IMG/VR virus record: IMGVR_UViG_3300020735_000006
Coordinates: 1-35,949 of that record
Direction: 5' to 3' (one strand)
Length of the DNA: 35,949 nucleotides
DNA from: a virus
Taxonomy: Duplodnaviria > Heunggongvirae > Uroviricota > Caudoviricetes
The notes beneath the pieces were generated by a model. The model made no database searches and had not been told where the DNA came from. It saw only the letters and a program-made list of their open reading frames with translations. The number at the start of each line of letters is the position of its first letter. The stretch's first letter is position 1. Shown one piece after another: positions 23,729 to 35,949 of the stretch. A program made the position numbers and the translations under genes.

Positions 23729-23733
23729 ATCGT

Positions 23734-23762
23734 TTGACCTTTAATTCTCAATAGTATATAAT
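23734..23762 (+). promoter_or_regulatory. Sigma70 promoter opening the RNA island
   Basis: TTGACC-17 nt-TATAAT. Confidence 0.8.
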
Positions 23763-23774
23763 AGTTACTTAGTA

Positions 23775-23849
23775 GGGCCTTTAGCTTAATGGTAAAGCAA
23801 TCGACTCATAATCGATGGAGTGAAAGTTCAATTCTTTCAAGGCCCACCA
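23775..23849 (+). tRNA. tRNA with CAT anticodon, Ile2-like
   Basis: Cloverleaf, loop CTCATAA, encoded CCA; resembles lysidine-type Ile2 tRNAs. Confidence 0.85.
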
Positions 23850-23874
23850 GATTTGAAGTATAAATAGAAACACC

Positions 23875-23959
23875 GCCTCGATGGTGGAATTGGTTTACAC
23901 AGCGGTCTTAGAAGCCGTCCCCGAAAGGGTTGAGAGTTCGAGTCTCTCTCGAGGCACCA
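23875..23959 (+). tRNA. tRNA-Leu(TAG)
   Basis: Loop CTTAGAA, long variable arm, CCA. Confidence 0.9.
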
Positions 23960-23981
23960 CACAATTCAATTAGGAAATATT

Positions 23982-24431
23982 ATGTCAATTACATTAGAAA
24001 ACTTAAAATCGGCATTTGCAGGTGAGTCGCAAGCATTTACCAAGTATATGTATTTTGCTAAAATCGCACGTGCAGAAGGTAATGAAGATATTGCTCTACA
24101 TTTTGAACATACTGCCGGTCAAGAACTATTACATGCACACGGACATTTAGAATTATTAGTAAGCAAGCCAACTACAGCTGAATGTTTGCAAATGGCAATT
24201 GATGGCGAAACGGAAGAGTTTACTCATATGTACCCAACAATGCTTAAAGAAGCTGTTGAAGAAGGTAATATTGTTGCTGCACTCGAAGCACAAACACAAA
24301 TTGACGAAAGCAAAGAACACGCCGACGAATTTACCACTATCCTTGCCAAAGCAGAAAAGCGTTTTGCTGCATTAGCAAAAGTTGAGAAGCGTCATGCAGA
24401 AGCGTATCAATCAAAATTGGAGACACTATAA
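23982..24431 (+). CDS. rbr: Rubrerythrin (ferritin-like domain only)
   Basis: NLKSAFAGESQAFTKYMYFAKIA, ExxH di-iron motifs (ELLH, EKRH), AIDGETEEFTHMYP. Confidence 0.9.
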   Translation: MSITLENLKSAFAGESQAFTKYMYFAKIARAEGNEDIALHFEHTAGQELLHAHGHLELLVSKPTTAECLQMAIDGETEEFTHMYPTMLKEAVEEGNIVAALEAQTQIDESKEHADEFTTILAKAEKRFAALAKVEKRHAEAYQSKLETL

Positions 24432-24559
24432 TGGAACATGTTTGTATTGTATGTGGACACGTTCACAATGAAGCAGTAGAAGGCGTATGGGACGAATTAC
24501 TAGAGAATTTTGAGTGCCCAGAGTGTGGTTGCGGTAAAGAAGATTACGTAGTACAATAA
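24431..24559 (+). CDS. Rubredoxin, 42 aa (not in ORF track)
   Basis: MEHVCIVCGHVH...WDELLENFECPECGCGKEDY, two CxxCG motifs; TAATG coupling to rbr. Confidence 0.88.
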   Translation: MEHVCIVCGHVHNEAVEGVWDELLENFECPECGCGKEDYVVQ

Positions 24560-24568
24560 GCATTGAAT

Positions 24569-24653
24569 GGGATCGTGGAGAAATTGGTATACTCAGGAGA
24601 CTTAAAATCTCCCGTCGCAAGACATGGCGGTTCAAGTCCGCCCGGTCCTACCA
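24569..24653 (+). tRNA. tRNA-Leu(TAA)
   Basis: Loop CTTAAAA, variable arm, CCA. Confidence 0.9.
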
Positions 24654-24681
24654 TTAACATTCTTTCTAGCCAGTTGCATTA

Positions 24682-25311
24682 ATGAAATCTATCTTTATAC
24701 TGTACCTTCCAGGATATGCAGGTAATTTTTTAACCAGACTATTCAGCCTAGGAGCAGATACAGTACCGCATCTACCTAAAGATGAACTAACTAAAGCAGT
24801 AGATTTGGGTTGCCTCCCAGATATGGCAAACAAAATACAGTGGTATCGATTCTCAAAAGTAAATCAAACATTTGAAAATTGGCAAGAGTTTCATCGAAGT
24901 TGGCCCGATTTTTATGATAGAGAATTATTCGAAGAGTACATACAACTACTAGATCCTACTCCGGGTAATATTGTTTATAGCATACACCCCCATGAATTTG
25001 ATATATTTTTGAAAGATATAACATCAATTGAGGATCGGCAGTTATTTTATGTCGAATTGGACCTAACAAAATATGCAGAATGGTTAGCTACAGCTACACT
25101 TAAACTTGGGTTTGTTTGTAGACCAAATGAAGTTGCACAGCTAAATCATTTTTGTAAATTTGACATGGAACCGATTAGTTTAACTTCTATGTTAGACTCT
25201 GAAGAATCATTTATAGAAGAATATCATAGGGTATGTGATCTAATGTCACTTGCTAAAGTTACTAGTAGTGCAGTAGAATTATATCGAGATTGGACAAGTA
25301 TTAGAGGTTGA
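24682..25311 (+). CDS. Hypothetical accessory protein (YxxGxxGxFL family)
   Basis: FILYLPGYAGNFL N-terminus like ORF 12015. Confidence 0.6.
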   Translation: MKSIFILYLPGYAGNFLTRLFSLGADTVPHLPKDELTKAVDLGCLPDMANKIQWYRFSKVNQTFENWQEFHRSWPDFYDRELFEEYIQLLDPTPGNIVYSIHPHEFDIFLKDITSIEDRQLFYVELDLTKYAEWLATATLKLGFVCRPNEVAQLNHFCKFDMEPISLTSMLDSEESFIEEYHRVCDLMSLAKVTSSAVELYRDWTSIRG

Positions 25312-25336
25312 CAGATAAATAACTTTAATGTACAAT
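25308..25336 (+). promoter_or_regulatory. Sigma70 promoter
   Basis: TTGACA-17 nt-TACAAT. Confidence 0.8.
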
Positions 25337-25400
25337 CAGTGCATTAGTTAACAAAGTTTTACAAAAAGGATAAATAAATTACTGACAGCCAAATTGGTGG

Positions 25401-25429
25401 TTGACAGTAAAAGATCAATAAGCTACAAT
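25401..25429 (+). promoter_or_regulatory. Sigma70 promoter of leader peptide
   Basis: TTGACA-17 nt-TACAAT; ATG 10 nt after the -10 box. Confidence 0.8.
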
Positions 25430-25438
25430 AGATATATT

Positions 25439-25594
25439 ATGAAATTACAGAATTTTAAACAGTCCGTACAACATACGCAACCAGCAGGGATGTCAGCCTA
25501 TTGGTCAGTGAATTGTGCGCCGGCGATGTTTAATAGTAATTCAGATCGCGGCACAGAGATTAGAAGTAGGGTCCACGGAGTTATGGTTAGTTAA
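25439..25594 (+). CDS. Putative attenuator leader peptide, 51 aa, contains all 20 amino acids
   Basis: Stop codon lies at apex of antiterminator hairpin; near-leaderless start. Confidence 0.65.
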   Translation: MKLQNFKQSVQHTQPAGMSAYWSVNCAPAMFNSNSDRGTEIRSRVHGVMVS

Positions 25595-25629
25595 GTAAAA
25601 ACAAATCATAAAGAACTTTAAGGACCCTA
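25567..25629 (+). promoter_or_regulatory. Antiterminator hairpin
   Basis: TAGGGTCC(25567-74)/GGACCCTA(25622-29) plus inner TTATGGTT/AATCATAA; overlaps terminator 5' arm. Confidence 0.7.
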
Positions 25630-25654
25630 GGATATAAAAACCCTAGGGTTTTTT
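25624..25654 (+). terminator. Attenuator terminator
   Basis: ACCCTAGG/CCTAGGGT stem followed by T6. Confidence 0.85.
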
Positions 25655-25671
25655 GTTATTAGGAACAGTAT

Positions 25672-25827
25672 ATGAATGTAAAGAACATTAGAGAGTTTAC
25701 TGGCTTGGTTCTTTCAGCAGAGCAGAAGGTTGAACTGATGGAAGCCAAAGTTAGGCGAGCCGAAGCACATATTAAGAGTTTAGCAGAACAAGCTAAACTA
25801 CTTGAAAAAGCTCGAGCTCGTAGATAA
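25672..25827 (+). CDS. Small basic coiled-coil hypothetical protein, 51 aa (not in ORF track)
   Basis: AGGA RBS; MNVKNIREFTGLVLSAEQKVELMEAKVRRAEAHIKSLAEQAKLLEKARARR. Confidence 0.55.
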   Translation: MNVKNIREFTGLVLSAEQKVELMEAKVRRAEAHIKSLAEQAKLLEKARARR

Positions 25828-25929
25828 GAAGTAAGTGTTAACAGGAAACGAGATCCTATGCTACACTATAAACAAGCATAAATGGGCGGAACTAAGGATG
25901 GAGCACCTCGTGTGGTGTGAAAAATCTAG

Positions 25930-26048
25930 TTATAGTAAAGTACTTTGGATGACCATCTGGCGAGAGAAGCAGGCCGCATCGACCGCGGCTGACAAGTACA
26001 TAACGCACGAAAAAGTGTAAAATGTATACCCAGAGTACTTTACTATAA
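25930..26048 (+). repeat. Inverted-repeat-boxed RNA cassette, divergent outlier (element 0)
   Basis: TTATAGTAAAGTACTTTGG/CCAGAGTACTTTACTATAA, 19 bp with one G-U. Confidence 0.7.
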
Positions 26049-26053
26049 ACAAC

Positions 26054-26138
26054 GCACAAGCGGCTAAGTTGGAGAGTGGCGGCTGACTGTAAATCAGTTC
26101 CTTAGGGTGAATAGGTTCGAATCCTATCTTGTGCACCA
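26054..26138 (+). tRNA. tRNA-Tyr(GTA)
   Basis: Loop CTGTAAA, variable arm, CCA. Confidence 0.9.
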
Positions 26139-26160
26139 ATTGAAGTATAAGTAAGTATAT

Positions 26161-26234
26161 GCGGGTATGGTGTAATGGTAACCCGAGACCTTGCCAAGGT
26201 TTAGTTGAGAGTTCAATTCTCTCTACCCGCTCCA
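26161..26234 (+). tRNA. tRNA-Gly(GCC)
   Basis: GCGGGTA acceptor, loop TTGCCAA, TCCA end. Confidence 0.92.
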
Positions 26235-26250
26235 ACTTTAATAAAATATA

Positions 26251-27108
26251 ATGCCGAGTAGATTACTCTTTGTTGGATGTAACAAAATAATAGATTCAGT
26301 TATTAGTTTACAATTTGACAAATACCTAACACCTAAACCTAGTAAGACTATAATTTACCTAGGATCGCGTGAACATGGGGTACGTAACGATATTGATTTG
26401 CTTGGGTTATACCAACAGTACAACATAGATACCACAAATTTTAGTGTAGTACACGATTTAGATTTATTAGATACATACAAGAATATACGTCTAATTAATT
26501 TATTTCAACCATGGATTTTACAACAACTTTTAAAATTGATGGCAGTTGACACATGCAACGATAATAAAATATTAATTCAAGACAGTGATATTATATTGTT
26601 GAAACCTTATGTTTATTTTGAAAACAATATACCTGTACCATTTAAATTTGAGAATATGTCACACTCTGCAGGATATTACAAATACGTTGAAACATTTACT
26701 GGACAGTTAAGACAAACCGAAGATTGTTTTGTTACAGACTTTATGCCGTTTCGTAAAAGCGACTGGCAATCTCTAAAACAACACATTGAGCAATCATACA
26801 GAACAGATTGGTTAACAGCAATAACAACTCAATTTAAAAAGGATCACCCATATCCAAAAGGTAATATAGCGTTTAGTGAGTATGAATTGTTAGGTAATTG
26901 GTTGTTAATCAATTATCCCGATCTTAAAACAGTACAACAGTATCATTATCCGTTAACAGCAGAACGTACTAGATTTATAAAGAACAAAAATTTTGAGTTA
27001 AGTGATTTTAAAAAAGAATCATTTGACAGTATTGCTATAAAACTATATAATGATGACATAAGACTTAGTCTTGATGATGTAGATTATATAGTAAAGTATT
27101 TTACATGA
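26251..27108 (+). CDS. Glycosyltransferase-like protein (GT-A DxD; DUF6492-like)
   Basis: WILQQLLKL, ILIQDSDIILLKP, FSEYELLGNW. Confidence 0.6.
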   Translation: MPSRLLFVGCNKIIDSVISLQFDKYLTPKPSKTIIYLGSREHGVRNDIDLLGLYQQYNIDTTNFSVVHDLDLLDTYKNIRLINLFQPWILQQLLKLMAVDTCNDNKILIQDSDIILLKPYVYFENNIPVPFKFENMSHSAGYYKYVETFTGQLRQTEDCFVTDFMPFRKSDWQSLKQHIEQSYRTDWLTAITTQFKKDHPYPKGNIAFSEYELLGNWLLINYPDLKTVQQYHYPLTAERTRFIKNKNFELSDFKKESFDSIAIKLYNDDIRLSLDDVDYIVKYFT

Positions 27109-27180
27109 GTCTCAAGTGTTACGGTAGCACAGCGGCCTCCAAAGCCTCAGGCCGGGGTTCGACTCCCTGGAGATTCGCCA
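27107..27180 (+). tRNA. tRNA-Trp(CCA)
   Basis: Loop CTCCAAA, GCCA end; first 2 nt overlap upstream TGA stop. Confidence 0.88.
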
Positions 27181-27198
27181 GATTAAAAAGGAAATAAA

Positions 27199-27759
27199 AT
27201 GAAATATTTGTATTATGTGTTTTACTTGCCAATGGCATTAGTTGATATATTGTTATCATATGTTATATCGTATCCACTTGCACCACTGTTGCCATTGTTT
27301 GCAACAGAACAAGACGGCCCACTAGATAATGGTGGTCATACAGGATTAGGACCAAGATTACCTAAGTGGCTTAATTGGTTTCAAACGCCCGACAATAGCT
27401 TGTATGGTGATGCCGGATTTATTGCTATTAATGGCCAAAGCTATTTGTCACAAGTTAAATGGTTATGGCGCAATCCGGCATATTCGTTTGCTATGAGTAC
27501 TGTAACAAGTCCTTATACTACAAGTTTTAGTGGAGATCCAACTATCAAGGATAATGATAATGCCCGAGCTGGCTGGTGCGTAGCCCATGTAAATGATTTA
27601 TTTTTACTTAGATTAGTTTTACCAATTGGATTTAGTCGTTGTATCTATTGTAACTTTGGCTGGAACATTATGGCCATTGTAGATCCTAATGTACAACCGA
27701 AGCCAACAACATGGCAAGCAACATTTGTATTCAGTCCTAGATTATCGGGATTTAGGTAA
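27199..27759 (+). CDS. Hypothetical phage protein
   Basis: AAGGA RBS; WFQTPDNSLYGD and WLWRNPAY motifs. Confidence 0.65.
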   Translation: MKYLYYVFYLPMALVDILLSYVISYPLAPLLPLFATEQDGPLDNGGHTGLGPRLPKWLNWFQTPDNSLYGDAGFIAINGQSYLSQVKWLWRNPAYSFAMSTVTSPYTTSFSGDPTIKDNDNARAGWCVAHVNDLFLLRLVLPIGFSRCIYCNFGWNIMAIVDPNVQPKPTTWQATFVFSPRLSGFR

Positions 27760-27769
27760 CAAGTTTTAT

Positions 27770-27843
27770 GCGGGATTAGTTTAGGGGCAAAACAGCAGAT
27801 TTCCAATCTTCGGTCATCGGTTCGATTCCGATATCCCGCTCCA
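27770..27843 (+). tRNA. tRNA-Gly(TCC)
   Basis: Loop TTTCCAA, TCCA end. Confidence 0.9.
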
Positions 27844-27866
27844 AGTTTTAAAGTAGTGTATTATGT

Positions 27867-27939
27867 TCCGAGCAAGCAAACACGGTGTAGGCGGCGGACT
27901 GTTAATCCGTTAAGCCTGGTTCGATTCCAGGGCTCGGAG
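27867..27939 (+). tRNA. tRNA-Asn(GTT), no encoded CCA, acceptor stem extendable to 17 bp
   Basis: Loop CTGTTAA; flanks TGTATTATGT/GCATAGTACA pair. Confidence 0.85.
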
Positions 27940-27952
27940 CATAGTACATTAT

Positions 27953-28027
27953 GGGGGTGTAGTGCTAATGGGAACACATCTGGTTTGCAACCAGAAATTG
28001 AGAGTTCGATTCTCTCCATCTCCACCA
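27953..28027 (+). tRNA. tRNA-Ala(TGC)
   Basis: G3-U70, loop TTTGCAA, ACCA. Confidence 0.92.
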
Positions 28028-28030
28028 TAC

Positions 28031-28105
28031 GGTAATGTAGCATAATGGTAGTGCTCCACCTTCATACGGTGTTCAGTGTAAGTTCGACTCTTACCATTAC
28101 CACCA
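28031..28105 (+). tRNA. tRNA-Met(CAT), elongator-like
   Basis: Loop TTCATAC, ACCA. Confidence 0.85.
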
Positions 28106-28117
28106 AATCTTTCCTAT

Positions 28118-28194
28118 TGCGGGAGAGTAAAACGGTTTAAACGTCAGTCTCATAAGCTGAAGACATCAGGTTCGACTCCTGCTTCCCGCAACCA
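28118..28194 (+). tRNA. tRNA-Met(CAT), initiator-like
   Basis: TGCGGGA/TCCCGCA ACCA resembles fMet ends but lacks three G-C anticodon-stem pairs. Confidence 0.8.
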
Positions 28195-28204
28195 ATTTAA
28201 TACG

Positions 28205-28248
28205 GCCCTCTTCTATCGCTTAACTGGATAGCTTGAGGGTTCTTTTTT
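28205..28248 (+). terminator. Terminator-like hairpin inside tRNA array
   Basis: GCCCTC/GAGGGT and CTATC/GATAG stems followed by TCTTTTTT. Confidence 0.55.
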
Positions 28249-28322
28249 GCCTCGGTAGTTTAAAAGTAGAACACCCTCCTTACAAGTGGAAGACGGCGGA
28301 GCATTACCGCAACGAGGTACCA
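28249..28322 (+). tRNA. tRNA-Val(TAC), non-canonical T-loop AGCATTA
   Basis: Loop CTTACAA, ACCA. Confidence 0.8.
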
Positions 28323-28329
28323 ACAATTT

Positions 28330-28404
28330 GCCCTATTATCCTTAATGGTAGAGGTCCTGTTTTGTAATCAGGGTGTGGAAGTTCGATTCTTTCATGGGGC
28401 ACCA
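28330..28404 (+). tRNA. tRNA-Thr(TGT)
   Basis: Loop TTTGTAA, ACCA. Confidence 0.88.
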
Positions 28405-28504
28405 AGTTTTGAAGAAGCCTGGTTTAAATCCGGCCCGCCGGGAAACGGTTAATAGTCCGTCCTAGCGGTAGATTAATAATTAATAAATCGTCAAATTTAA
28501 CAAT

Positions 28505-28579
28505 CTCAGTGTAGGCAAGTGGTATGTCGCTTGGTTTGGGACCAAGACGTCGAGTGTTCGATTCACTCCACTGAGACCA
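28505..28579 (+). tRNA. tRNA-Pro(TGG)
   Basis: Loop TTTGGGA, ACCA. Confidence 0.9.
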
Positions 28580-28587
28580 CAAACAAT

Positions 28588-28662
28588 AGCCGGTTAGCTC
28601 AGTGGTAGAGCAGCGCCTTGATAAGGCGTTGGCCGCAAGTTCAAATCTTGCACCGGCTACCA
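28588..28662 (+). tRNA. tRNA-Ile(GAT)
   Basis: Loop TTGATAA, ACCA. Confidence 0.92.
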
Positions 28663-28669
28663 AAACAAT

Positions 28670-28759
28670 AGTGAGTTGGGCGAGAGGCTTATGCCGTTAG
28701 TTTGCTAAACTGATGATCCCTAAAAAGGTCCGTGAGTTCGAATCTCACACTCACTGCCA
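28670..28759 (+). tRNA. tRNA-Ser(GCT)
   Basis: Loop TTGCTAA, long variable arm, GCCA. Confidence 0.9.
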
Positions 28760-28765
28760 TACACA

Positions 28766-28840
28766 GGGTCTTTCGTAGAATGGATATTACGCAACGCTAC
28801 GGACGTTGAAATGTGGGTTCGATTCCTGCAGGACCCGCCA
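28766..28840 (+). tRNA. tRNA-Arg(ACG)
   Basis: Loop CTACGGA, GCCA. Confidence 0.9.
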
Positions 28841-28863
28841 ATTTAAAATGAAAGGAGAAGGTA

Positions 28864-29268
28864 ATGTCGTATTATGACAAGTTGTGTGAAGTAGACGTAT
28901 TAAAAGGTAAAACATTATCTTCTGTTCATAGAGATGGTGACGAGGAAATCTTGTTTGAAACAGTGGATGGTGACGTCTATCGAATGTTTCACAGCCAAGA
29001 TTGTTGTGAGTCGGTGTATATTGAAAGTATTGTTGGCGATTTACAAGACTTAGTAGGTGAAGAAATCTTAGTAGCTGAAGCAAATGAAAATTTGTTTGAT
29101 ATATTGAAAAATGCAGGTAAAGAAGAAGATGACTGTGATGAATCATACACTTGGACATTCTACAAGTTTGCTACACGTAAAGGTTATGTAGATATTCGTT
29201 GGTATGGATCATCAAATGGTTATTACTCAGAGTCGGTAGACTTTGTAAAAGTACAAGGAGAAGTATAA
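28864..29268 (+). CDS. Hypothetical acidic phage protein
   Basis: AAGGAG RBS; MFHSQDCCESVYIE and IRWYGSSNGYYSESV motifs. Confidence 0.75.
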   Translation: MSYYDKLCEVDVLKGKTLSSVHRDGDEEILFETVDGDVYRMFHSQDCCESVYIESIVGDLQDLVGEEILVAEANENLFDILKNAGKEEDDCDESYTWTFYKFATRKGYVDIRWYGSSNGYYSESVDFVKVQGEV

Positions 29269-29474
29269 TGAAAGCAAGAAACATATATGCAGTATTAGCC
29301 AGTAAACGGAAGGCGGGCTCGCACCGCAAGAGCAATAAAGCTCTACGTAAATTAACTAAACAGCGGGATCGTAGCTCAAAGGCAGAGCAAGAGGCTTTTA
29401 ACTTCGAGGTTGTCAGTTCAAGTCTGACCGGTCCCACCATATTAAAACATATTTGCAACCACATGGGAGTGTAA
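29268..29474 (+). CDS. Small Lys/Arg-rich protein whose frame runs through tRNA-Lys (start trimmed from 29199)
   Basis: AAGGAG RBS 8 nt upstream, TAATG coupling; first stop is TAA 29472-74 inside repeat element 1. Confidence 0.55.
   Translation: MKARNIYAVLASKRKAGSHRKSNKALRKLTKQRDRSSKAEQEAFNFEVVSSSLTGPTILKHICNHMGV
29365..29439 (+). tRNA. tRNA-Lys(TTT)
   Basis: Loop CTTTTAA, ACCA (shared with repeat arm). Confidence 0.9.
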
Positions 29475-29503
29475 AGTCCGTGGGGAGTGTGTTTTAATAT
29501 GGT
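29436..29503 (+). repeat. Inverted-repeat cassette element 1 (68 nt)
   Basis: ACCATATTAAAACATA/TGTGTTTTAATATGGT; 63/68 identical to 33611-33678. Confidence 0.9.
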
Positions 29504-29517
29504 ACAAGACGAACAAA

Positions 29518-29592
29518 GGGGGATGGGCAGGGTACCCGGATTTGCTTTGCAAGCAGATAGCCTGATCGGTTCGAGTCCGATATTCTCCACCA
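29518..29592 (+). tRNA. tRNA-Ala(TGC), second copy
   Basis: G3-U70, loop TTTGCAA, ACCA; D-arm weak. Confidence 0.78.
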
Positions 29593-29596
29593 ATTA

Positions 29597-29616
29597 CTTG
29601 TATGTTTTAATATGGT
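29597..29616 (+). repeat. Extra right arm of the repeat family closing the tRNA-Ala cassette
   Basis: CTTGTATGTTTTAATATGGT complements ACCATATTAAAACATA(29436-51)+CAAG(29505-08). Confidence 0.85.
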
Positions 29617-29656
29617 AGAGCGGCGGAGTAAGCATAAATAACTTAAAGGATATATT

Positions 29657-30268
29657 ATGCTTATTTGTAAATTTTGTAATAAAGAATGTAAGTCGCCGAA
29701 CTCCTGGAGAAACCACGAAAGATTGTGCCACTCAAATCCAAACAGACAAATATCAAGTTTCACTTGGTATAATTACGAAAATAAAGTTGCGTGGAACAAA
29801 GGAAAAACAAAAGCAGAATTCCCTTCACTGGCACGACCTAACCAAATTGGGAAAAAGTTTGGATCTGCACTTACTGGGCACACTGAGGAAACTAAGAAAA
29901 AAATTAGTGCTAAGTTATCAATAAACAATAAGGGAGGAAGATCCAAGTGGTACGAAGTTGCTGGACAAAAAGTACAAGGTACTTGGGAAAGAAATGTTGC
30001 CTTAAAGTTTGAAGAGTTGCACATTAAGTGGGAAAAACTTAAAACAAATAGAGATACACTTGAGTATGTAATGGACGGAAAAACTCGATCTTATACTCCA
30101 GATTTTTTTCTCCCTGATAATAATCTTTATTTAGAAATTAAAGGACATTGGTGGGGCAACGATAGAGAAAAAATGGATATTGTATTAAAAACATATCCTG
30201 ATATAAAGATTATCATCGTTGAAAAAGATGATTACGAAAAGATTTTGCGAGGTGAGCTAGTTTGGTAA
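29657..30268 (+). CDS. Putative free-standing homing endonuclease: zinc finger + NUMOD3-like + PD-(D/E)xK domain
   Basis: CKFC...HERLC, HTEETKKKIS, YTPDFFLPDNNLYLEIKG. Confidence 0.7.
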   Translation: MLICKFCNKECKSPNSWRNHERLCHSNPNRQISSFTWYNYENKVAWNKGKTKAEFPSLARPNQIGKKFGSALTGHTEETKKKISAKLSINNKGGRSKWYEVAGQKVQGTWERNVALKFEELHIKWEKLKTNRDTLEYVMDGKTRSYTPDFFLPDNNLYLEIKGHWWGNDREKMDIVLKTYPDIKIIIVEKDDYEKILRGELVW

Positions 30269-30325
30269 TTCCAGCGTATGCCTGAAGAGCATAAGAACTA
30301 GGTTCGATTCCTAGACCTCGCACCA
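30247..30325 (+). tRNA. tRNA-Phe(GAA), overlaps last codons of endonuclease ORF
   Basis: GCGAGGT/ACCTCGC, loop CTGAAGA, ACCA. Confidence 0.85.
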
Positions 30326-30334
30326 AAGTTCTAT

Positions 30335-30408
30335 TGAGGTATAGTGTAATGGTAACACTACGCACTTTGACTGCGTCATTCTAGGTTCAAGTCCTGGTAC
30401 CTCTACCA
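30335..30408 (+). tRNA. tRNA-Gln(TTG)
   Basis: 1-72 mismatch, loop CTTTGAC, CCA. Confidence 0.88.
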
Positions 30409-30409
30409 A

Positions 30410-31540
30410 CTAAGATATTATATCAGTGAAATATTTGACTATCTCTGGAAAAGTTTCTTTCCAGTTTAATTTACGTTTTTTATCATGAAACTCGATATAT
30501 TGAATAAACGCATTAAATTTATCTTTGTCGAACGGTCTCATTCTATTAACTAGCCAGGGATCGTTTGCGTATTTTGTTTTAATTTCTTCCATCAGATTTG
30601 GGGGAATCGACGAGGTGTTAATAATTCCATTTGTATCAAACCCCTGTAAGAATCTTAGGTCATTACTACTCTTGCGCGGGGGGAAAATTGTTTTTTCCCA
30701 TTCCATATATTGATCGTAATAAAAAATGTTCAATGGGTTAATAGCAGAACTAATTTCCAATTTGATGTCTGGGATGTTTAAATTGATAATATATTTAATA
30801 TTATTTTCAACTTGATCCCACTGCAAAGGCCACCGTAAATAATTAAAATGTTCGCCAATGCCATCAATACTGAAACTAATTTGTAAGGTTTTTAATTGTT
30901 TCCATAATTCAATAGTTTCGGCGTCAGGTTTTTGACTACCGTTAGTGACATATCTCACTGATACTTGATCTAATGGTTTAGATTTTTGAATATCTTTAAG
31001 CGTTTGTTTATGGAATTCACTAAGTAGAGGCTCTCCTCCTAAGAATACTACTAAGTTAACATCATTTAATGAAACAAACTTAAATATGTTGTTATATCGA
31101 TTTGTTGCGTTTACATCTGCAATTATATCGATTTGTTTATTAATTACACTTTTGTTTACTGCATTACTAGAACTATATTTTTGCCATGTTGTACTATTAT
31201 AATCGCCACATATTAAACAGGCAGCATTACAATTAGTATCAATTTGAAATTCCAAGGATGTAACTTTGTTGATTTCGAGGACATTAGTGATCCCAACTAT
31301 AGATGGTTTCTTTTCGGCGATTTGTCTGGGTGATATAACATTACGACTTTCTTTTTCTTGGCAAAAATTGCATTCGGGTACCCAATCGTCGATTTGTCCT
31401 AACCAATTTTGATATTCATTGAATTCATCTTGTGTACTACTCATAATATTAAATTTCTTAGTAATCCAACAACACGGTGCATAATCATTGTATTCAACAC
31501 GTGCTTGATTTTTTAGATATAAACAAAAAGGTTTTTTCAT
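30410..31540 (-). CDS. Radical SAM protein (start trimmed from 31576)
   Basis: CNAACLIC CxxxCxxC, FLGGEPLL, YVTNGS, FSIDGIG. Confidence 0.85.
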   Translation of the reverse strand: MKKPFCLYLKNQARVEYNDYAPCCWITKKFNIMSSTQDEFNEYQNWLGQIDDWVPECNFCQEKESRNVISPRQIAEKKPSIVGITNVLEINKVTSLEFQIDTNCNAACLICGDYNSTTWQKYSSSNAVNKSVINKQIDIIADVNATNRYNNIFKFVSLNDVNLVVFLGGEPLLSEFHKQTLKDIQKSKPLDQVSVRYVTNGSQKPDAETIELWKQLKTLQISFSIDGIGEHFNYLRWPLQWDQVENNIKYIINLNIPDIKLEISSAINPLNIFYYDQYMEWEKTIFPPRKSSNDLRFLQGFDTNGIINTSSIPPNLMEEIKTKYANDPWLVNRMRPFDKDKFNAFIQYIEFHDKKRKLNWKETFPEIVKYFTDIIS

Positions 31541-31641
31541 GCTATTATTTATAGAAACATTTTGTTGTATAAACAATTAACCGTGTCAACTTAGCTGTAG
31601 CTTAAGGCGTTAATATAGTATGCAAACTACAGGAGACTATT

Positions 31642-31773
31642 ATGTCACCAATGCTACTTCAAGTTAAAGAACTATTAAGTCGTAATTTAGATGCTTTTGA
31701 AATTGCTCACCGCTTACACATCAATATCGATAGTGTAAATTCTGCGATTGAGTTACTAACCCGAATAAATTAA
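31642..31773 (+). CDS. Small hypothetical protein, HTH-like, 43 aa (not in ORF track)
   Basis: AGGAG RBS; LDAFEIAHRLHINIDSVNSAIELL. Confidence 0.55.
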   Translation: MSPMLLQVKELLSRNLDAFEIAHRLHINIDSVNSAIELLTRIN

Positions 31774-31774
31774 C

Positions 31775-31849
31775 CCGCCCATAGTATAATGGAGAATACA
31801 GAAGGCTTCTACCCTTTTGATGTGAGTTCGATTCTTGCTGGGCGGACCA
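31775..31849 (+). tRNA. tRNA-Arg(TCT)
   Basis: Loop CTTCTAC, ACCA. Confidence 0.9.
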
Positions 31850-31855
31850 AACAAT

Positions 31856-31931
31856 GGTGACATTAGTGTAGAGGTTCGCACCCGACTCTGTGAAAGTCGT
31901 AGTATGGGATCGTTCCCCATATGTTACCCCA
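31856..31931 (+). tRNA. tRNA-His(GTG), T-loop ATCGTTC
   Basis: G-1:C73 8-bp acceptor, loop CTGTGAA. Confidence 0.85.
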
Positions 31932-31937
31932 AACAAT

Positions 31938-32029
31938 GCCAGCGAGACTTGGAAGTCAGAGAGGTCTTATACACCTTTTAGCGCCAGATTAGCGTTCTTG
32001 AGAAGGTTCGATCCCTTCCGCTGGTACCA
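31938..32029 (+). tRNA. Atypical tRNA with TAT anticodon (Ile), short D-arm and long variable arm
   Basis: GCCAGCG/CGCTGGT ACCA, loop CTTATAC, T-arm GAAGG-TTCGATC-CCTTC. Confidence 0.7.
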
Positions 32030-32036
32030 AAAATAC

Positions 32037-32126
32037 GGAAGAATGTCTGAGTCTGGCTTAAGGAAACAGTCTTGAAAACTGTCGGCTGTAAAAGGTCCGT
32101 GGGTTCGAATCCCACTTCTTCCTCCA
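32037..32126 (+). tRNA. tRNA-Ser(TGA)
   Basis: Loop CTTGAAA, variable arm, CCA. Confidence 0.9.
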
Positions 32127-32133
32127 ATACTAT

Positions 32134-32211
32134 GCAACGGTGGCAGAGTGGCCCAATGCACCAGCCTGCAAAGCTGAAACCCCGTGTGTTCGAATCACAC
32201 CCGTTGCTCCA
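32134..32211 (+). tRNA. tRNA-Cys(GCA)
   Basis: Loop CTGCAAA, TCCA. Confidence 0.88.
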
Positions 32212-32244
32212 AATAGTGTTGCAAAAATACAACGGTTGAAATAG

Positions 32245-32273
32245 TTGTCCGTTAATTCCCAATATTGTATAAT
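32245..32273 (+). promoter_or_regulatory. Sigma70 promoter P1 of repeat array
   Basis: TTGTCC-17 nt-TATAAT. Confidence 0.75.
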
Positions 32274-32294
32274 AGTTGTATATTAAGTAATACA

Positions 32295-32309
32295 GCTCAT
32301 TAACAATTT
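32295..32309 (+). promoter_or_regulatory. rrn-type boxA-like antitermination site 1
   Basis: GCTCATTAACAATTT versus E. coli rrn GCTCTTTAACAATTT. Confidence 0.6.
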
Positions 32310-32315
32310 ATTGGC

Positions 32316-32418
32316 ACTATATTAAATCAAACTTTGAAAATCCGTAGGTGATCGGGTAGTTGCTTGTATTACTATGAGTAATAGGTTGCTCCGACAGGTT
32401 AGTATGTTTTAATATGGT
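32316..32418 (+). repeat. Inverted-repeat cassette element 3 (degenerate)
   Basis: ACTATATTAAATCAAACT/AGTATGTTTTAATATGGT. Confidence 0.7.
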
Positions 32419-32446
32419 TGTCCAATAAAGATCATAATGCTATAAT
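32418..32446 (+). promoter_or_regulatory. Sigma70 promoter P2 of repeat array (extended -10)
   Basis: TTGTCC-17 nt-TGC-preceded TATAAT. Confidence 0.78.
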
Positions 32447-32464
32447 ACTTGTATAGTAATTAAA

Positions 32465-32479
32465 GTTCATTAACAATTT
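32465..32479 (+). promoter_or_regulatory. boxA-like site 2
   Basis: GTTCATTAACAATTT at similar distance from promoter as site 1. Confidence 0.6.
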
Positions 32480-32507
32480 GAGTAGAATATAAGCACCCTG
32501 GGAAGGG

Positions 32508-32604
32508 TTACTATATTGAAATGTATTAGTCTACGTCAGTACTAGGACTTCTGTGCGATAAGCGGCTACCTAGATAAGCCCACTAGTGCGTTTCAATATA
32601 GTAA
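32508..32604 (+). repeat. Inverted-repeat cassette element 4
   Basis: TTACTATATTGAAATGTATTAG/CTAGTGCGTTTCAATATAGTAA, 22 bp with 3 G-U. Confidence 0.9.
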
Positions 32605-32764
32605 GGTTGGCGGGCAGAGGCCCGGATTGAGTGGATGGACCTTTATCTGGTCCTACCCGCAAGAGATAGTCTGGTGGTCGCAGAGCAAGTACGCGGAGAT
32701 GCAGTCAAGAACGTTGCGTCGACGCAACGGAGGAGATAGTACCAGGGAAAGCGAAAACAACATA

Positions 32765-32848
32765 CTATATTAAAGCATACTCTGCTGAAGCTGATGCCCG
32801 GGCTTGGTTCCCGATGGTAATCGTCGGAAGGAGTGTGTTTTACGATAG
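32765..32848 (+). repeat. Inverted-repeat cassette element 5
   Basis: CTATATTAAAGCATACTC/GAGTGTGTTTTACGATAG, 16 of 18 paired. Confidence 0.75.
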
Positions 32849-32929
32849 AACTAAGTTGCTAGAAGCTTAGTCTGACGGCTGGTTAGGGATACACGGTGTC
32901 CGCGGTATAAGTGAACCAGAACTTCGAGT

Positions 32930-33028
32930 GCTGATAGGTAAGCTATCTACTATATTGAAATACTTTGCAACGGCAGCTGATAGGTAAGCTATCTACTATA
33001 TTGAAATACTTTGCAACGGCAGCTGATA
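32930..33028 (+). repeat. Perfect 46-bp tandem duplication containing a left repeat arm
   Basis: GCTGATAGGTAAGCTATCTACTATATTGAAATACTTTGCAACGGCA twice plus GCTGATA. Confidence 0.95.
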
Positions 33029-33110
33029 ATGCCAGATAGACGAACAGCGTATAAGCGGTGCACCGCCCAATTCTTAGTAGGTCTATGAAGTAGAGTGTTT
33101 CAATATAGTA
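32994..33110 (+). repeat. Inverted-repeat cassette element 6
   Basis: TACTATATTGAAATACTTT/AGAGTGTTTCAATATAGTA, 19 bp with 2 G-U. Confidence 0.9.
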
Positions 33111-33244
33111 TCCGTTCGTATATGGTAGTATATACAGTTGGGTGAAAGGTGGAACTACTCGAAGGTGCGGCCGCACTAGTTGAGACTATCACTAAGTAGC
33201 TTTTGGACAACTGTGGATAGGTTCGATTCCTATTACGGAGACTA
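33110..33244 (+). ncRNA. tRNA-like RNA with 67-nt insert replacing anticodon loop
   Basis: TCCGT/ACGGA acceptor core, D-like GTATAT/ATATAC, AGTTG/CAACT stem, T-arm ATAGG-TTCGATT-CCTAT. Confidence 0.65.
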
Positions 33245-33338
33245 TATTGAAATGCATTTATATGCTAAACGGTACAGCCGACCTGTTAAAGGGTTAGATG
33301 TAAGGTTCGAGTCCTTACTAAGTGTGTTTCAATATGGT
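33241..33338 (+). repeat. Inverted-repeat cassette element 7, enclosing an Asn-like pseudo-tRNA (33254-33325)
   Basis: 20-bp stem with 4 G-U; inside D-loop AAACGGTAC, CTGTTAA-containing irregular loop, T-arm GTAAGG-TTCGAGT-CCTTAC. Confidence 0.88.
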
Positions 33339-33451
33339 GACAGTATGAGCGTGGTACGATCCTCGAGGTAAGTGCTCGGACATACGCTATTATTTACAGG
33401 GATTAATTACCCCTTAGTAGTAGAGATCCAGGTTCGATTCCTGGTCATTAT
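33334..33451 (+). ncRNA. tRNA-like RNA with enlarged D-arm region; acceptor built from repeat arms
   Basis: ATGGTGA/TCATTAT, T-arm CCAGG-TTCGATT-CCTGG. Confidence 0.6.
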
Positions 33452-33553
33452 ATTGAAACATATTAAATTCTAGACACACTAGAGCACTGAGGTCGTGTGT
33501 TATGCCCCCAAAGGCGAGCTTAGAGACTTCTGCATAGTATGTTTCAATATGGT
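33447..33553 (+). repeat. Inverted-repeat cassette element 8
   Basis: ATTATATTGAAACATATTA/TAGTATGTTTCAATATGGT, 19 bp with 3 G-U. Confidence 0.9.
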
Positions 33554-33610
33554 GAGTCGGACAAACGTGTATGGACAACCGGGCAACTGGGGCTAATCCT
33601 ACACACCGAC

Positions 33611-33678
33611 ACCATATTAAAACACATTTGCAACCACATGGGAGTGCAATATCCGCGGGGAGTGTGTTTTAATATGGT
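33611..33678 (+). repeat. Inverted-repeat cassette element 9 (copy of element 1)
   Basis: ACCATATTAAAACACA/TGTGTTTTAATATGGT perfect 16 bp. Confidence 0.92.
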
Positions 33679-33803
33679 AAGTAACAGTAGATCGGGAGGG
33701 AGGTCGTTGCTAGTCACAATGGACCCCAAACAGAGTCGCTGTGAAGTCAGACAATAGAGAAGGACAACTCCGTGACTGGACTACTCCGAATCCACGATAC
33801 GAC

Positions 33804-33931
33804 GCCATATTGAAATGTATTTGACGGGAGTCGCTTGCCAAGAGCCGCAAGTGGGCCACCCGGTGGAGCTGTCACTCTGCGAAAAGCCACTATGACAGTA
33901 GTGGAACATATTAAGTACGTTTCAATATGGT
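33804..33931 (+). repeat. Inverted-repeat cassette element 10
   Basis: GCCATATTGAAATGTATTT/AAGTACGTTTCAATATGGT, 19 bp with 3 G-U. Confidence 0.9.
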
Positions 33932-34052
33932 TGTGTTCGCAAGCTAAGTAGCGTAGTGGTACGCCAGCTGGTAATTTCCAGTCCTTGCCCTTAGAGAGTA
34001 AACGCGATGCTCTCGTAAAGTGAGGTAGGTTCGATTCCTACTACAGCCACCA
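33929..34052 (+). ncRNA. 124-nt tRNA-like RNA with 7-bp acceptor, T-arm and ACCA but rebuilt D/anticodon region
   Basis: GGTTGTG/TACAGCC ACCA; GTAGG-TTCGATT-CCTAC; GCAAG/CTTGC domain with two hairpins; GAGAGTA/TGCTCTC arm. Confidence 0.7.
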
Positions 34053-34058
34053 AAATTT

Positions 34059-34133
34059 GGTCTCATGGTATAATGGTTATTACACCGGCCTGTCACGTCG
34101 GATACAGGGGTTCAATTCCCCTTGAGACCGCCA
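34059..34133 (+). tRNA. tRNA-Asp(GTC)
   Basis: Loop CTGTCAC, GCCA. Confidence 0.92.
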
Positions 34134-34139
34134 AATTAT

Positions 34140-34214
34140 ACTCTGTTCGTCTATCGGTTAGGACCCAAGGTTTTCAACCTTGTAAGAGGAGTTCAACTCT
34201 CCTACAGAGTACCA
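34140..34214 (+). tRNA. tRNA-Glu(TTC)
   Basis: Loop TTTTCAA, ACCA. Confidence 0.9.
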
Positions 34215-34217
34215 AAT

Positions 34218-34318
34218 TCCAGTCATGGTGCGTATGCGACCCAGGGATTAGTATCAAGGTGTTCGAACACCGACATACTGATTGTAAAGTGTACGAGTGG
34301 TTCAATTCCACTACTGGT
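34218..34318 (+). ncRNA. tRNA-like RNA without CCA
   Basis: CCAGT/ACTGG, T-arm AGTGG-TTCAATT-CCACT, long ATTAGTAT/ATACTGAT arm. Confidence 0.5.
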
Positions 34319-34319
34319 C

Positions 34320-34890
34320 TTATCTATCGGGTCAATGATCGTGCGTGAGCACACAGACGGAGGTTCTGCTGTTGAAAGTGAATCCGTGTAGCGTAATGCT
34401 ACACGCTCGGCCAATTTTCAGGATAGACGGTAGGATGAGTCCTAAGTAGCGTAAAGCAGTTCCTTTCGGCGCGAAATACAGATGTGCTCTCCTTCTCGAG
34501 ACAAACATAGTTGGACCTACGGCGTAAAAACTGCAACTATGTTCCTGAAAACCTTTTATGTTTGTATAGTGGCTACAATGGAACAACACTGAACTTGCTA
34601 TGATGCCGGTCGACGCAAGAGGTGCCATGAAGAGTTGGGGCTACCGCAGGTTCAAGCACTGAATACAAACACCTAATTCGCCCATAACGGATTTGACTAA
34701 CTCGCCTTGTACCAAGGAACTTAAATGTTCCGCCGCGGTACGGGAAGTGATTTAAGGAGTAAGTCGTCAACAGACCCCCGGGAGCCATTCGGCGGTTAAG
34801 TTCTTAACCCGGTAAAATAAATAAGAGTGAGTTCTGCCAGTAACTTTCACAAGGACAAGAGTGTAGCTTGCTACCACTCCACTGGCACCT
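34320..34890 (+). ncRNA. Candidate structured non-coding RNA region
   Basis: No convincing CDS; nested 7-9 bp stems (34415/34551, 34505/34542, 34559/34671, 34590/34654, 34835/34887). Confidence 0.5.
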
Positions 34891-34910
34891 ATTTTATATA
34901 TAGAATATAG

Positions 34911-34939
34911 TTGACTACGTTTTCTATTTGCTATATAAT
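34911..34939 (+). promoter_or_regulatory. Sigma70 promoter, predicts leaderless mRNA
   Basis: TTGACT-17 nt-TATAAT; ATG 7 nt downstream, no RBS. Confidence 0.75.
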
Positions 34940-34945
34940 ATACAG

Positions 34946-35949
34946 ATGAATCATATAGAAACCAATGATAAACTAGGCTACTATACAGTAGGCCAAGAAA
35001 AAATCCATCATAAGCCAATTGCTTTGATGCGAGCCACCGAAACTAATCAATTTCCCGAATGGCACTTTAATAGAGAAGTTCTTAACGCACATACATGGGA
35101 CCAAGAACCCGAAGTTTCCTTACAGGAACTGTATCGTATACGTGCTCAACAGATTCGTGACAAATACGATTATATTAGACTAGAGTTTAGCGGCGGCGCC
35201 GATAGCACAGTAGTATTATATTCGTTTATTAACAATGGAATTCATCTTGACGAAATTGTAACACGATGGCCTAAAACTGCTGGAGAAAAATTTGTACCAG
35301 CAGATCCGTATAATTACAAACCCGAAAATAGTTTAAGTGAGTGGGAGTATGCGGCTAAACCATTACTTGAATGGGTGAAAACACATTCGCCTAATACAAA
35401 AATTACAATACACGATTACTCAGATGACATGCTCACTGGCGAGCATGATGAATCGTGGGTGTATAATGTCAAGGATTGGTTACTTCCTAGTTATCAGTTT
35501 AAAACAAGTATCCATGCAATGGATGAGCACAAACGAACATTAGACCGAGGAAAATCTGTATGTATACTTTGGGGTGTAGATAAACCTAAATTATGTATTA
35601 AAGACGGTAAATGGTATGTATACTATATGGATACCCAGGCTAATAATTGTAGTTCTGACATTGGTGTTTACTCTAATGCTACTAATGAATATTTCTTTTG
35701 GTCACCAGACTTGCCTGAAATTGTAAGTAAACAAGCGCATACTATAAAAAATTGGTTTGAATTACCAACTAACAAGTATTTGCAACATTTAGTACGTTGG
35801 CCTAACCATTCTTTAGCGCAACGTGCTACATATGAACAGATAGTAAAACCACTGATTTTTCCCGAATACGATCCTACTACGTTCCAGTGTTCTAAACCTA
35901 GTAGCAATTTTTATAATGAAATGGATGCGTGGTTTTATAATAATTTTCA
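34946..35949 (+). CDS. PP-loop (adenine nucleotide alpha-hydrolase-like) protein, 3' truncated by window (not in ORF track)
   Basis: Frame open to window end; RLEFSGGADSTVVL contains SGGxDS. Confidence 0.75.
   Translation, partial: MNHIETNDKLGYYTVGQEKIHHKPIALMRATETNQFPEWHFNREVLNAHTWDQEPEVSLQELYRIRAQQIRDKYDYIRLEFSGGADSTVVLYSFINNGIHLDEIVTRWPKTAGEKFVPADPYNYKPENSLSEWEYAAKPLLEWVKTHSPNTKITIHDYSDDMLTGEHDESWVYNVKDWLLPSYQFKTSIHAMDEHKRTLDRGKSVCILWGVDKPKLCIKDGKWYVYYMDTQANNCSSDIGVYSNATNEYFFWSPDLPEIVSKQAHTIKNWFELPTNKYLQHLVRWPNHSLAQRATYEQIVKPLIFPEYDPTTFQCSKPSSNFYNEMDAWFYNNF

Follow-up and report, generated by a model that had tools for sequence, protein, structure and literature searches.

Several kinds of hairpin are linked to tRNA and rRNA genes, among them the leader-trailer processing helices of rRNA operons and the tRNA-miRNA units of MHV68. 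Elements that duplicate TA and carry terminal inverted repeats include Tc1/mariner and the IS630-type MITEs. In phage T4, SegB performs homing with co-conversion in a tRNA region; it cuts tRNA genes, and the neighbouring tRNA genes are co-inherited (PMC2330249). SegB also drives a UvsX/UvsY-dependent rearrangement near tRNA genes (PMC13096335), and, more generally, nuclease genes tend to lie at the borders of DNA exchanged between phages (PMC10448857). Here we describe a locus at positions 29436-29616 of a 35,949-nt stretch of viral DNA (the window) that is probably a joint of three separately inherited modules, assembled as an endonuclease-driven mosaic in a jumbo-phage tRNA island.

The window opens a 108-kb IMG/VR record, estimated to be 29% complete, and covers its first 35.9 kb. 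Its genes include a tail sheath, a terminase, an ssDNA-binding protein and a UvsX-like recombinase, and the structural and replication genes are followed by an island of 26 tRNA genes identified with ARAGORN. The source phage is an uncultured jumbo myovirus. An Rfam search over the interval returned tRNA and no other family. The features used below are the following.

17349-18449: UvsX-like recombinase gene
29268-29474, + strand: small basic open reading frame of 68 aa
29365-29439, + strand: tRNA-Lys(UUU), called by ARAGORN, 62.6 bits against the Rfam tRNA model
29436-29503, + strand: trailer hairpin of tRNA-Lys, 19-bp stem, -27.8 kcal/mol, z = -5.5
29486-30411, + strand: near-identical (exchanged) block
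29503-29602, + strand: tRNA-Ala* module, with leader TACAAG (29503-29508), tRNA-Ala(UGC) (29518-29592, ARAGORN) and trailer CTTGTA (29597-29602)
29603-29616, + strand: second right arm (R2), an exact 14-mer and direct repeat of 29490-29503
29613-29656, + strand: 5'-half remnant of a tRNA-Phe (about 29613-29626), followed by the conserved leader of the endonuclease gene
29657-30268, + strand: gene of a predicted free-standing homing endonuclease of 203 aa (Pfam PF05367 plus a zinc-finger family)
30247-30408, + strand: tRNA-Phe (79 nt, long D-loop) and tRNA-Gln, called by ARAGORN, the right part of the exchanged block

Relatives of the locus were collected with two protein queries. The upstream DUF7448 protein was used against metagenomes and gave four relatives with a protein identity of 88-91%, and look-up of the exact endonuclease protein, which is recorded on 16 contigs, gave ten more places. 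Four haplotypes were read directly from the relatives examined.

H1 (L085 and L086): tRNA-Lys region, left arm, the same hairpin body, right arm, then directly tRNA-Phe
H2 (L084): two tRNA-Lys, left arm, a diverged body, right arm R1, TACAAG, tRNA-Ala, CTTGTA, then a different tRNA-Phe
H3 (L083, L163, L164 and L167-L172): as H2 through CTTGTA, then R2 and the endonuclease
H4 (window, L165, L166 and L219): H1-type hairpin, then tRNA-Ala, R2 and the endonuclease

H1 has no tRNA-Ala, no second arm and no endonuclease, and the last GGT of its arm forms the first bases of tRNA-Phe. H2 has neither the second arm nor the endonuclease. Among the ten endonuclease places listed, eight have one hairpin background and two have the other. 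Contigs L086 (H1, no nuclease gene) and L164 (H3, with the nuclease gene) come from one metagenome, Ga0208497; the haplotypes thus co-occur, and the phages that carry them could co-infect. A megablast of 28800-30300 against GenBank phages returned a 31-nt tRNA match only, and neither the arm plus body nor the endonuclease leader had an exact-pattern match in viral contigs. The protein-based scan of viral contigs for the endonuclease found a single close relative, L192. A look-up of the DUF7448 protein in its exact form, for the window, L084 and L085, was aimed at more haplotypes and returned identical contigs or nothing.

The left part of the locus belongs to tRNA-Lys. The ACCA end of this tRNA (29436-29439) is also the first four bases of the left arm, and the trailer hairpin consists of a left strand (29436-29454), a loop (about 29455-29484) and a right strand (29485-29503), which is R1. 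It contains the left arm plus the 53-nt segment that the original prediction had described as a cassette body. A twin of the 70-nt hairpin unit, 93% identical, is free-standing at 33610-33679. An ACCA-anchored hairpin also follows tRNA-Lys in L080, L067, L055 and L007, which are more distant phages, and tRNAs other than tRNA-Lys bear such hairpins with different yet complementary arms. Compensatory double changes were found at 12 of 16 stem positions in 27 distinct arm pairs. At stem position 15 the orthologous hairpins have U-A in L085, C-G in L086 and the twin, and U.G in the window, a classic compensatory series. The non-Watson-Crick positions comprise 92 G.U and 37 A.C in 64 arm pairs that are related by descent and were chosen by their Watson-Crick pairs only. 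The excess of G.U over A.C points to the arms acting as RNA on the tRNA strand. These hairpins share a stem of 16-20 bp that begins at the discriminator-CCA and changes in a compensatory manner. The hairpin is a conserved trailer of tRNA-Lys(UUU), and its family consists of A/U-rich stems of 16-20 bp starting at the discriminator-CCA of the upstream tRNA.

Some details of these hairpins were seen in passing. Stem position 9 shows a recurrent A.C opposition in several independent hairpins (for example L080 at 8213, L084 at 769, L067 at 10542 and L173 at 2371), along with G-C, A-U and G.U variants; the A.C could be a wobble that is tolerated or protonated, or it could serve in recognition. The hairpin bodies of the window type and of the L083/L084 type share a CCAC.TGGGAGT core (29459-29474 in the window compared with L163), and their resemblance is that of diverged orthologues separated by a 13-nt indel rather than of unrelated cassettes exchanged for one another. 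ARAGORN called tRNA-Lys in L085 and not in L086, where positions 5500-5580 keep a UUU anticodon-like loop and the hairpin-starting ACCA at the tRNA-Lys position. This L086 segment may be a decaying tRNA-Lys.

The 68-aa reading frame has a good start, runs across tRNA-Lys and meets its stop codon in the hairpin loop. The first ~30 residues (motif KRKAGSHRKSNKALR) are shared almost unchanged by L083, L085 and L086; L080 has a related version and L067 retains part of it, whereas the segment within tRNA-Lys is not conserved. RNase P cleavage at tRNA-Lys would make its mRNA stop-less, and the product might be a rescue factor like ArfA, made from an mRNA that tRNA processing has cut. Sequence searches of Pfam, PHROGs and the PDB gave no match to the 68-aa product and leave its identity as an ArfA-like rescue factor unsupported.

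The original prediction held that a 53-nt cassette had been inserted into the left arm of a tRNA-Ala cassette, and the sequence pattern behind it was confirmed by reading and by script. Positions 29436-29451 joined to 29505-29508 are the exact reverse complement of 29597-29616, and the removed segment (29452-29504) has TA on both sides, at 29450-29451 and 29503-29504. The split point is ambiguous by two bases because TA is present at both edges, and a prefix of 14, 15 or 16 nt works equally. The two halves enclose the tRNA-Ala(UGC) call. This split complement occurs at one locus only in a scan of 23000-35949 and was absent from 20 first-order Markov resamples. In the L163 lineage the script likewise recovers the join, there as 14 nt plus TACAAG.

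The 14-nt arm core is present three times at the locus, inverted at 29436 and direct at 29490 and 29603, and many further copies lie in 32316-33931. Because 29490-29503 in R1 is a second, direct copy of R2, the left arm has two candidate partners. The window left arm matches R2 with 16 of 16 Watson-Crick pairs and R1 with one U.G. In the minimum free energy fold of a 261-nt transcript the left arm is paired with R1, and a short ACAAG/CUUGU helix closes tRNA-Ala. The conformer with left arm and R1 paired has an energy of -53.8 kcal/mol compared to -49.1 kcal/mol for the boxed conformer with left arm and R2 paired; forcing the latter pairing plus CAAG/CTTG costs 4.7 kcal/mol. The perfect 20 nt can be divided into 14 nt of the arm family, 2 nt (TA) in which alleles of the left arm vary, and 4 nt from the flank complement of the tRNA-Ala module. 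The TA allele is common to the window and L085, whereas H3 has CA. The flank complement is 6 nt long if TACAAG/CTTGTA is counted, and it occurs in H2 without R2. The pattern arises from the adjacency of arm, TACAAG, CTTGTA and arm, not from insertion. The split inverted repeat is probably a by-product of a nuclease gene and a tRNA-Ala recombined beside the tRNA-Lys trailer hairpin.

The tRNA-Ala of this module, denoted tRNA-Ala*, scores 23.4 bits against the Rfam tRNA model (RF00005), below the gathering score of 29, and falls outside the canonical tRNAs. A canonical tRNA-Ala(UGC) is located elsewhere in the window (27953-28027). G3.U70 and A73 are kept in tRNA-Ala*, but the ARAGORN structure is aberrant: the D-stem has 2-3 bp, a single nucleotide links it to the acceptor stem, and the anticodon stem is 6 bp long. 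The L084 copy has two T-stem disruptions. The module is present without the second arm in L084 and is absent from L085 and L086. An unrelated viral contig, L218, carries the gene with 75/75 identity (2315-2389, minus strand) and without arms or TACAAG/CTTGTA flanks, and it is the sole tRNA-Ala among the 24 tRNAs on that contig sequence. There it sits between tRNA-Leu, followed by ~130 nt of unannotated sequence, and tRNA-Gly. tRNA-Ala* is a mobile or conserved gene of uncertain function. The idea that a functional tRNA can be a payload is supported in part: a tRNA gene is among the variable payloads of this locus, and it is fully identical on a contig without arms. The retained G3.U70 and A73, the identity in L218 and its being the sole tRNA-Ala there speak for function, and a role as a functional payload is plausible.

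The right part of the locus carries the predicted endonuclease. The protein has an N-terminal C2H2 zinc finger and a PD-(D/E)XK domain like that of T7 endonuclease I (E = 1.8e-8 against PDB 1m0d), and 456 homologues were found. Its gene is present in the window, L083 and L163-L172 and absent from L084, L085 and L086, and this presence or absence at one site holds among relatives whose neighbouring DUF7448 proteins are 88-91% identical. An open reading frame with a nuclease fold that the neighbours do not need and that comes and goes between close relatives is what a homing cassette looks like. The reading frame overlaps a tRNA-Phe in 10 of 10 family loci examined, and in seven of these (window, L173, L181, L184, L187, L189 and L191) the overlap is 22 nt with a 79-nt, long-D-loop tRNA-Phe. 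Conservation of the 22-nt overlap across the family shows that the protein end and the tRNA start co-evolve. The last seven codons (...GELVW) lie in the tRNA-Phe acceptor and D-arm, at 30247-30268 in the window.

A second tRNA-Phe sequence precedes the gene. The leader holds a tRNA-Phe 5' remnant or match in all ten loci, ending at the 5' strand of the anticodon stem. The window remnant spans the D-loop to this strand; a recognisable 5' half precedes the endonuclease in L181, L184, L173, L187, L189 and L191, and L182 and L192 have a shorter match to the conserved leader. As far as the anticodon loop, the L181 and L184 remnants agree with the intact tRNA-Phe of L085. The site is thus conserved, the target is disrupted and replaced, and the uninterrupted target type survives in L085. 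With the overlap and a remnant or leader match found in every locus, the endonuclease most likely homes into tRNA-Phe and would bring a replacement copy. Two endonuclease-free alleles have different tRNA-Phe genes behind the same arm (L085 1322-1397 and L086 5643-5721). The L085 gene is the uninterrupted target, and the L086 gene is of the long-D-loop type that usually travels with the endonuclease; given this type, L086 may be a resistant allele left by endonuclease loss.

A comparison of the endonuclease-bearing haplotypes shows that the cassette lies in a larger exchanged block. BLAST of the window against L163 and L164 and against L083 identified a tract at 29486-30411 with 99.35% identity (6 mismatches in 926 nt), whereas its flanks are 84% identical on the left (120 mismatches in 775 nt) and 87% on the right. 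The block comprises arm, tRNA-Ala, arm, nuclease gene, tRNA-Phe and tRNA-Gln. It ends on the right at the end of tRNA-Gln and on the left inside R1, where the breakpoint can be placed to within the arm and not to a single base. A near-identical tract within diverged flanks is the signature of co-conversion and a further trait of a homing cassette. Beyond the block, a radical-SAM gene (30410-31576, minus strand) directly follows tRNA-Gln in the window and is missing in the H3 lineage; the L163 alignment jumps from 30411 to 31777 and skips it. It adds a second presence/absence difference, located where the exchanged block ends on the right.

We propose that the conserved tRNA-Lys trailer hairpin (left arm, 53-nt body and R1) was the first module. 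The second would be a tRNA-Ala* unit of ~100 nt with TACAAG/CTTGTA, placed between the hairpin and tRNA-Phe in some lineages only, and the third the PD-(D/E)XK homing endonuclease targeting tRNA-Phe, with the 5'-half remnant of its target in the leader and the replacement tRNA-Phe behind. An arm stump would have been carried with the endonuclease cassette or joined to it, at GTAT in the tRNA-Ala trailer and at TGGT in the tRNA-Phe remnant. The whole block would then have spread between lineages by break repair, as homing with co-conversion, and repair would have resolved on the left inside the 18-nt arm, the sole homology there. In this scheme the alleles, the identity block, the target remnants and the covariation of the stem are observed, and the order of events, the microhomology at the joints and the nuclease activity are what we infer. 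Homologous or microhomology repair would account for the joints, and the window encodes a UvsX-like recombinase.

The origin of R2 is central to this proposal. R2 lies at the joint of the tRNA-Ala* module and the endonuclease cassette and is absent in L084. Its left joint shares GTAT with the tRNA-Ala trailer, and its right joint shares TGGT with the D-loop of the tRNA-Phe remnant. Just upstream of the arms, R1 has GTG and R2 has GTA, which is the L085 arm form and also occurs in the trailer. The position of R2 between trailer and remnant, the shared TGGT and GTA, and the H1 arm that abuts tRNA-Phe suggest that R2 is most likely the stump of an arm that once abutted the target tRNA-Phe. The better match of the left arm to R2 than to R1 counts against the mosaic and would fit R2 as the original partner; we infer that allele type and conversion of R1 explain it. 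The predicted intermediate, with hairpin, arm, tRNA-Phe remnant and endonuclease and no tRNA-Ala, was not found in the collections searched, and L084 may in principle descend by deletion instead of representing the recipient state.

R2 could instead be a product of the locus itself, copied from R1 or templated on the complement of the left arm during repair of an endonuclease break. Unequal homologous recombination or template switching would then yield arm, tRNA-Ala and arm as a one-step segmental rearrangement. We consider this in-situ duplication unlikely, although a perfect direct repeat of 15 nt on both sides of tRNA-Ala, the microhomology at both R2 joints and the encoded UvsX-like recombinase all speak for it, and SegB-dependent segmental amplification beside tRNA genes requires UvsX and UvsY (PMC13096335). 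The arms differ just upstream, however, with the GTA of R2 matching the L085 form; the arm in nuclease-free alleles already abuts tRNA-Phe, so the position of R2 needs no new copy; and the ten listed places of the exact protein include no higher-copy ladder variants. The two candidate partners of the left arm also raise the idea of an RNA switch that alternates between R1 and R2, gates tRNA-Ala maturation or expression of the endonuclease 40 nt downstream, and is selected rather than a scar. The two conformers are only 4.7 kcal/mol apart, two lineages keep the arrangement without a base change, and the interval is not split by a promoter or terminator, a scan of 28700-30500 for these having given background levels. 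But the conservation is explained by recent transfer, as the 99.35% identity extends over the whole block, the L163 left arm mismatches R2 at position 15, co-transcriptional folding favours R1, and L084 has no second arm. A selected switch is the least probable of the readings considered.

The insertion reading of the original prediction is also highly improbable. It envisages a tRNA-Ala cassette boxed by 20 bp, into the left arm of which a 53-nt cassette (body plus right arm) entered at TA, with the arms working in an integron-like manner. The exact and unique split complement, the perfect 16-nt pairing of left arm and R2, the join in the L163 lineage and the variable module content at the locus would suit it. 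But no allele lacking 29452-29504 was found in the relatives, the whole hairpin with both arms and the body is present in L085 and L086 although they have no tRNA-Ala, the hairpins behind tRNA-Lys are kept in distant phages, and the 70-nt unit stands alone as the twin. TACAAG/CTTGTA flank tRNA-Ala in L084 without a second arm, the gene has no arms in L218, and the L163 left arm ends in CA, so that TA is not on both sides there. A TA-targeting inverted-repeat transposon or MITE was considered separately and rejected; after the arm core, CA stands in place of TA both in the H3 copies and in the twin at 33611, and no empty site was found.

An integron-like array should come with a nearby site-specific recombinase, IntI or another, and with alleles that gain or lose one cassette at its recombination site. 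Searches with PF00589 and PF00239 detected no tyrosine or serine recombinase, and no integrase was found, in the 108-kb record (~29% of the genome), and the control genomes were positive. No alleles differing by exactly one cassette were observed; what sets the haplotypes apart is the tRNA-Ala module and the cassette of arm plus endonuclease, and the joints show microhomology. The lack of an empty allele together with an invariant cassette order across relatives had been named as the result that would overturn the prediction, and the order is not invariant, as the modules beside the arm vary between relatives; the nested insertion is nevertheless unsupported. The suggestion that the arms are acquisition sites likewise survives in a weaker form. 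Because an arm is one boundary of the exchange, the arms may, with rather low probability, serve as homology patches, whereas a site-specific, integron-like mechanism has no support. A broader version, in which the arms double as RNA trailer stems that set tRNA ends and as portable DNA homology patches of 14-18 nt for endonuclease-triggered repair, is speculative and on balance rather doubtful. If it were true, the tRNA islands of jumbo phages would trade nuclease cassettes and RNA genes such as tRNA-Ala* by a recombinase-free, integron-like exchange.

The locus is a natural experiment with at least four haplotypes, two of which co-occur in one metagenome, in which a selfish nuclease appears to move neighbouring tRNA genes between lineages. 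The endonuclease represents an apparently uncharacterised homing family with a T7 endonuclease I fold and a zinc finger; its predicted target is the tRNA-Phe anticodon stem, and it travels with a replacement tRNA-Phe in all loci examined. The left end of the block suggests that a short structural RNA stem can be the homology where an exchange ends, which bears on how jumbo-phage tRNA islands are assembled. Repeat geometry alone is poor ground for integron-like logic in this arm family.

Compared with the known systems, the trailer hairpin resembles the rRNA leader-trailer helices and the MHV68 tRNA-miRNA units in that a long helix begins exactly at a mature RNA end, here a predicted one, and supplies the ends of neighbouring RNAs (here ACCA and 5' GG). 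It differs from them in that the stems are A/U-rich, sequence-conserved across phages and enclose variable small bodies. Short inverted ends and the TA flanking 53 nt in the window are shared with Tc1/mariner and the IS630-type MITEs. Unlike in those elements, the TA is an allele state of the stem (CA in L163 and TA in L085), no empty site was found, and the stem covaries pair by pair with no single protein-binding sequence kept. As with integron attC sites and cassettes, imperfect inverted repeats bound variable units in one orientation. Here, however, no integrase was found in the 108-kb record, the pairing of the arms is that of an RNA stem behind a tRNA, with G.U in excess on the tRNA strand, and RNA genes make up the payload. 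The exchange boundaries fit homologous or microhomology repair and not site-specific recombination.

The near-identical, nuclease-bearing block between diverged flanks is like that of the exchange-boundary nucleases, except that one boundary here falls on a short stretch that is conserved as an RNA stem and recurs in the tRNA island (PMC10448857). T4 SegB offers a nuclease gene amid phage tRNA genes, with a tRNA-gene target, variable presence, co-inheritance of the flanking tRNAs and rearrangements through UvsX/UvsY-type recombination, and the locus would share all of these (PMC2330249; PMC13096335). SegB is a GIY-YIG enzyme that recognises a T-psi-C stem-loop motif, whereas the protein here combines PD-(D/E)XK and C2H2 zinc-finger domains and its activity is predicted. 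The insertion point also differs from that of SegB, lying at the border of the tRNA-Phe anticodon stem and loop, and this endonuclease, unlike SegB, overlaps the replacement tRNA-Phe, by 22 nt in 7 of 10 loci.
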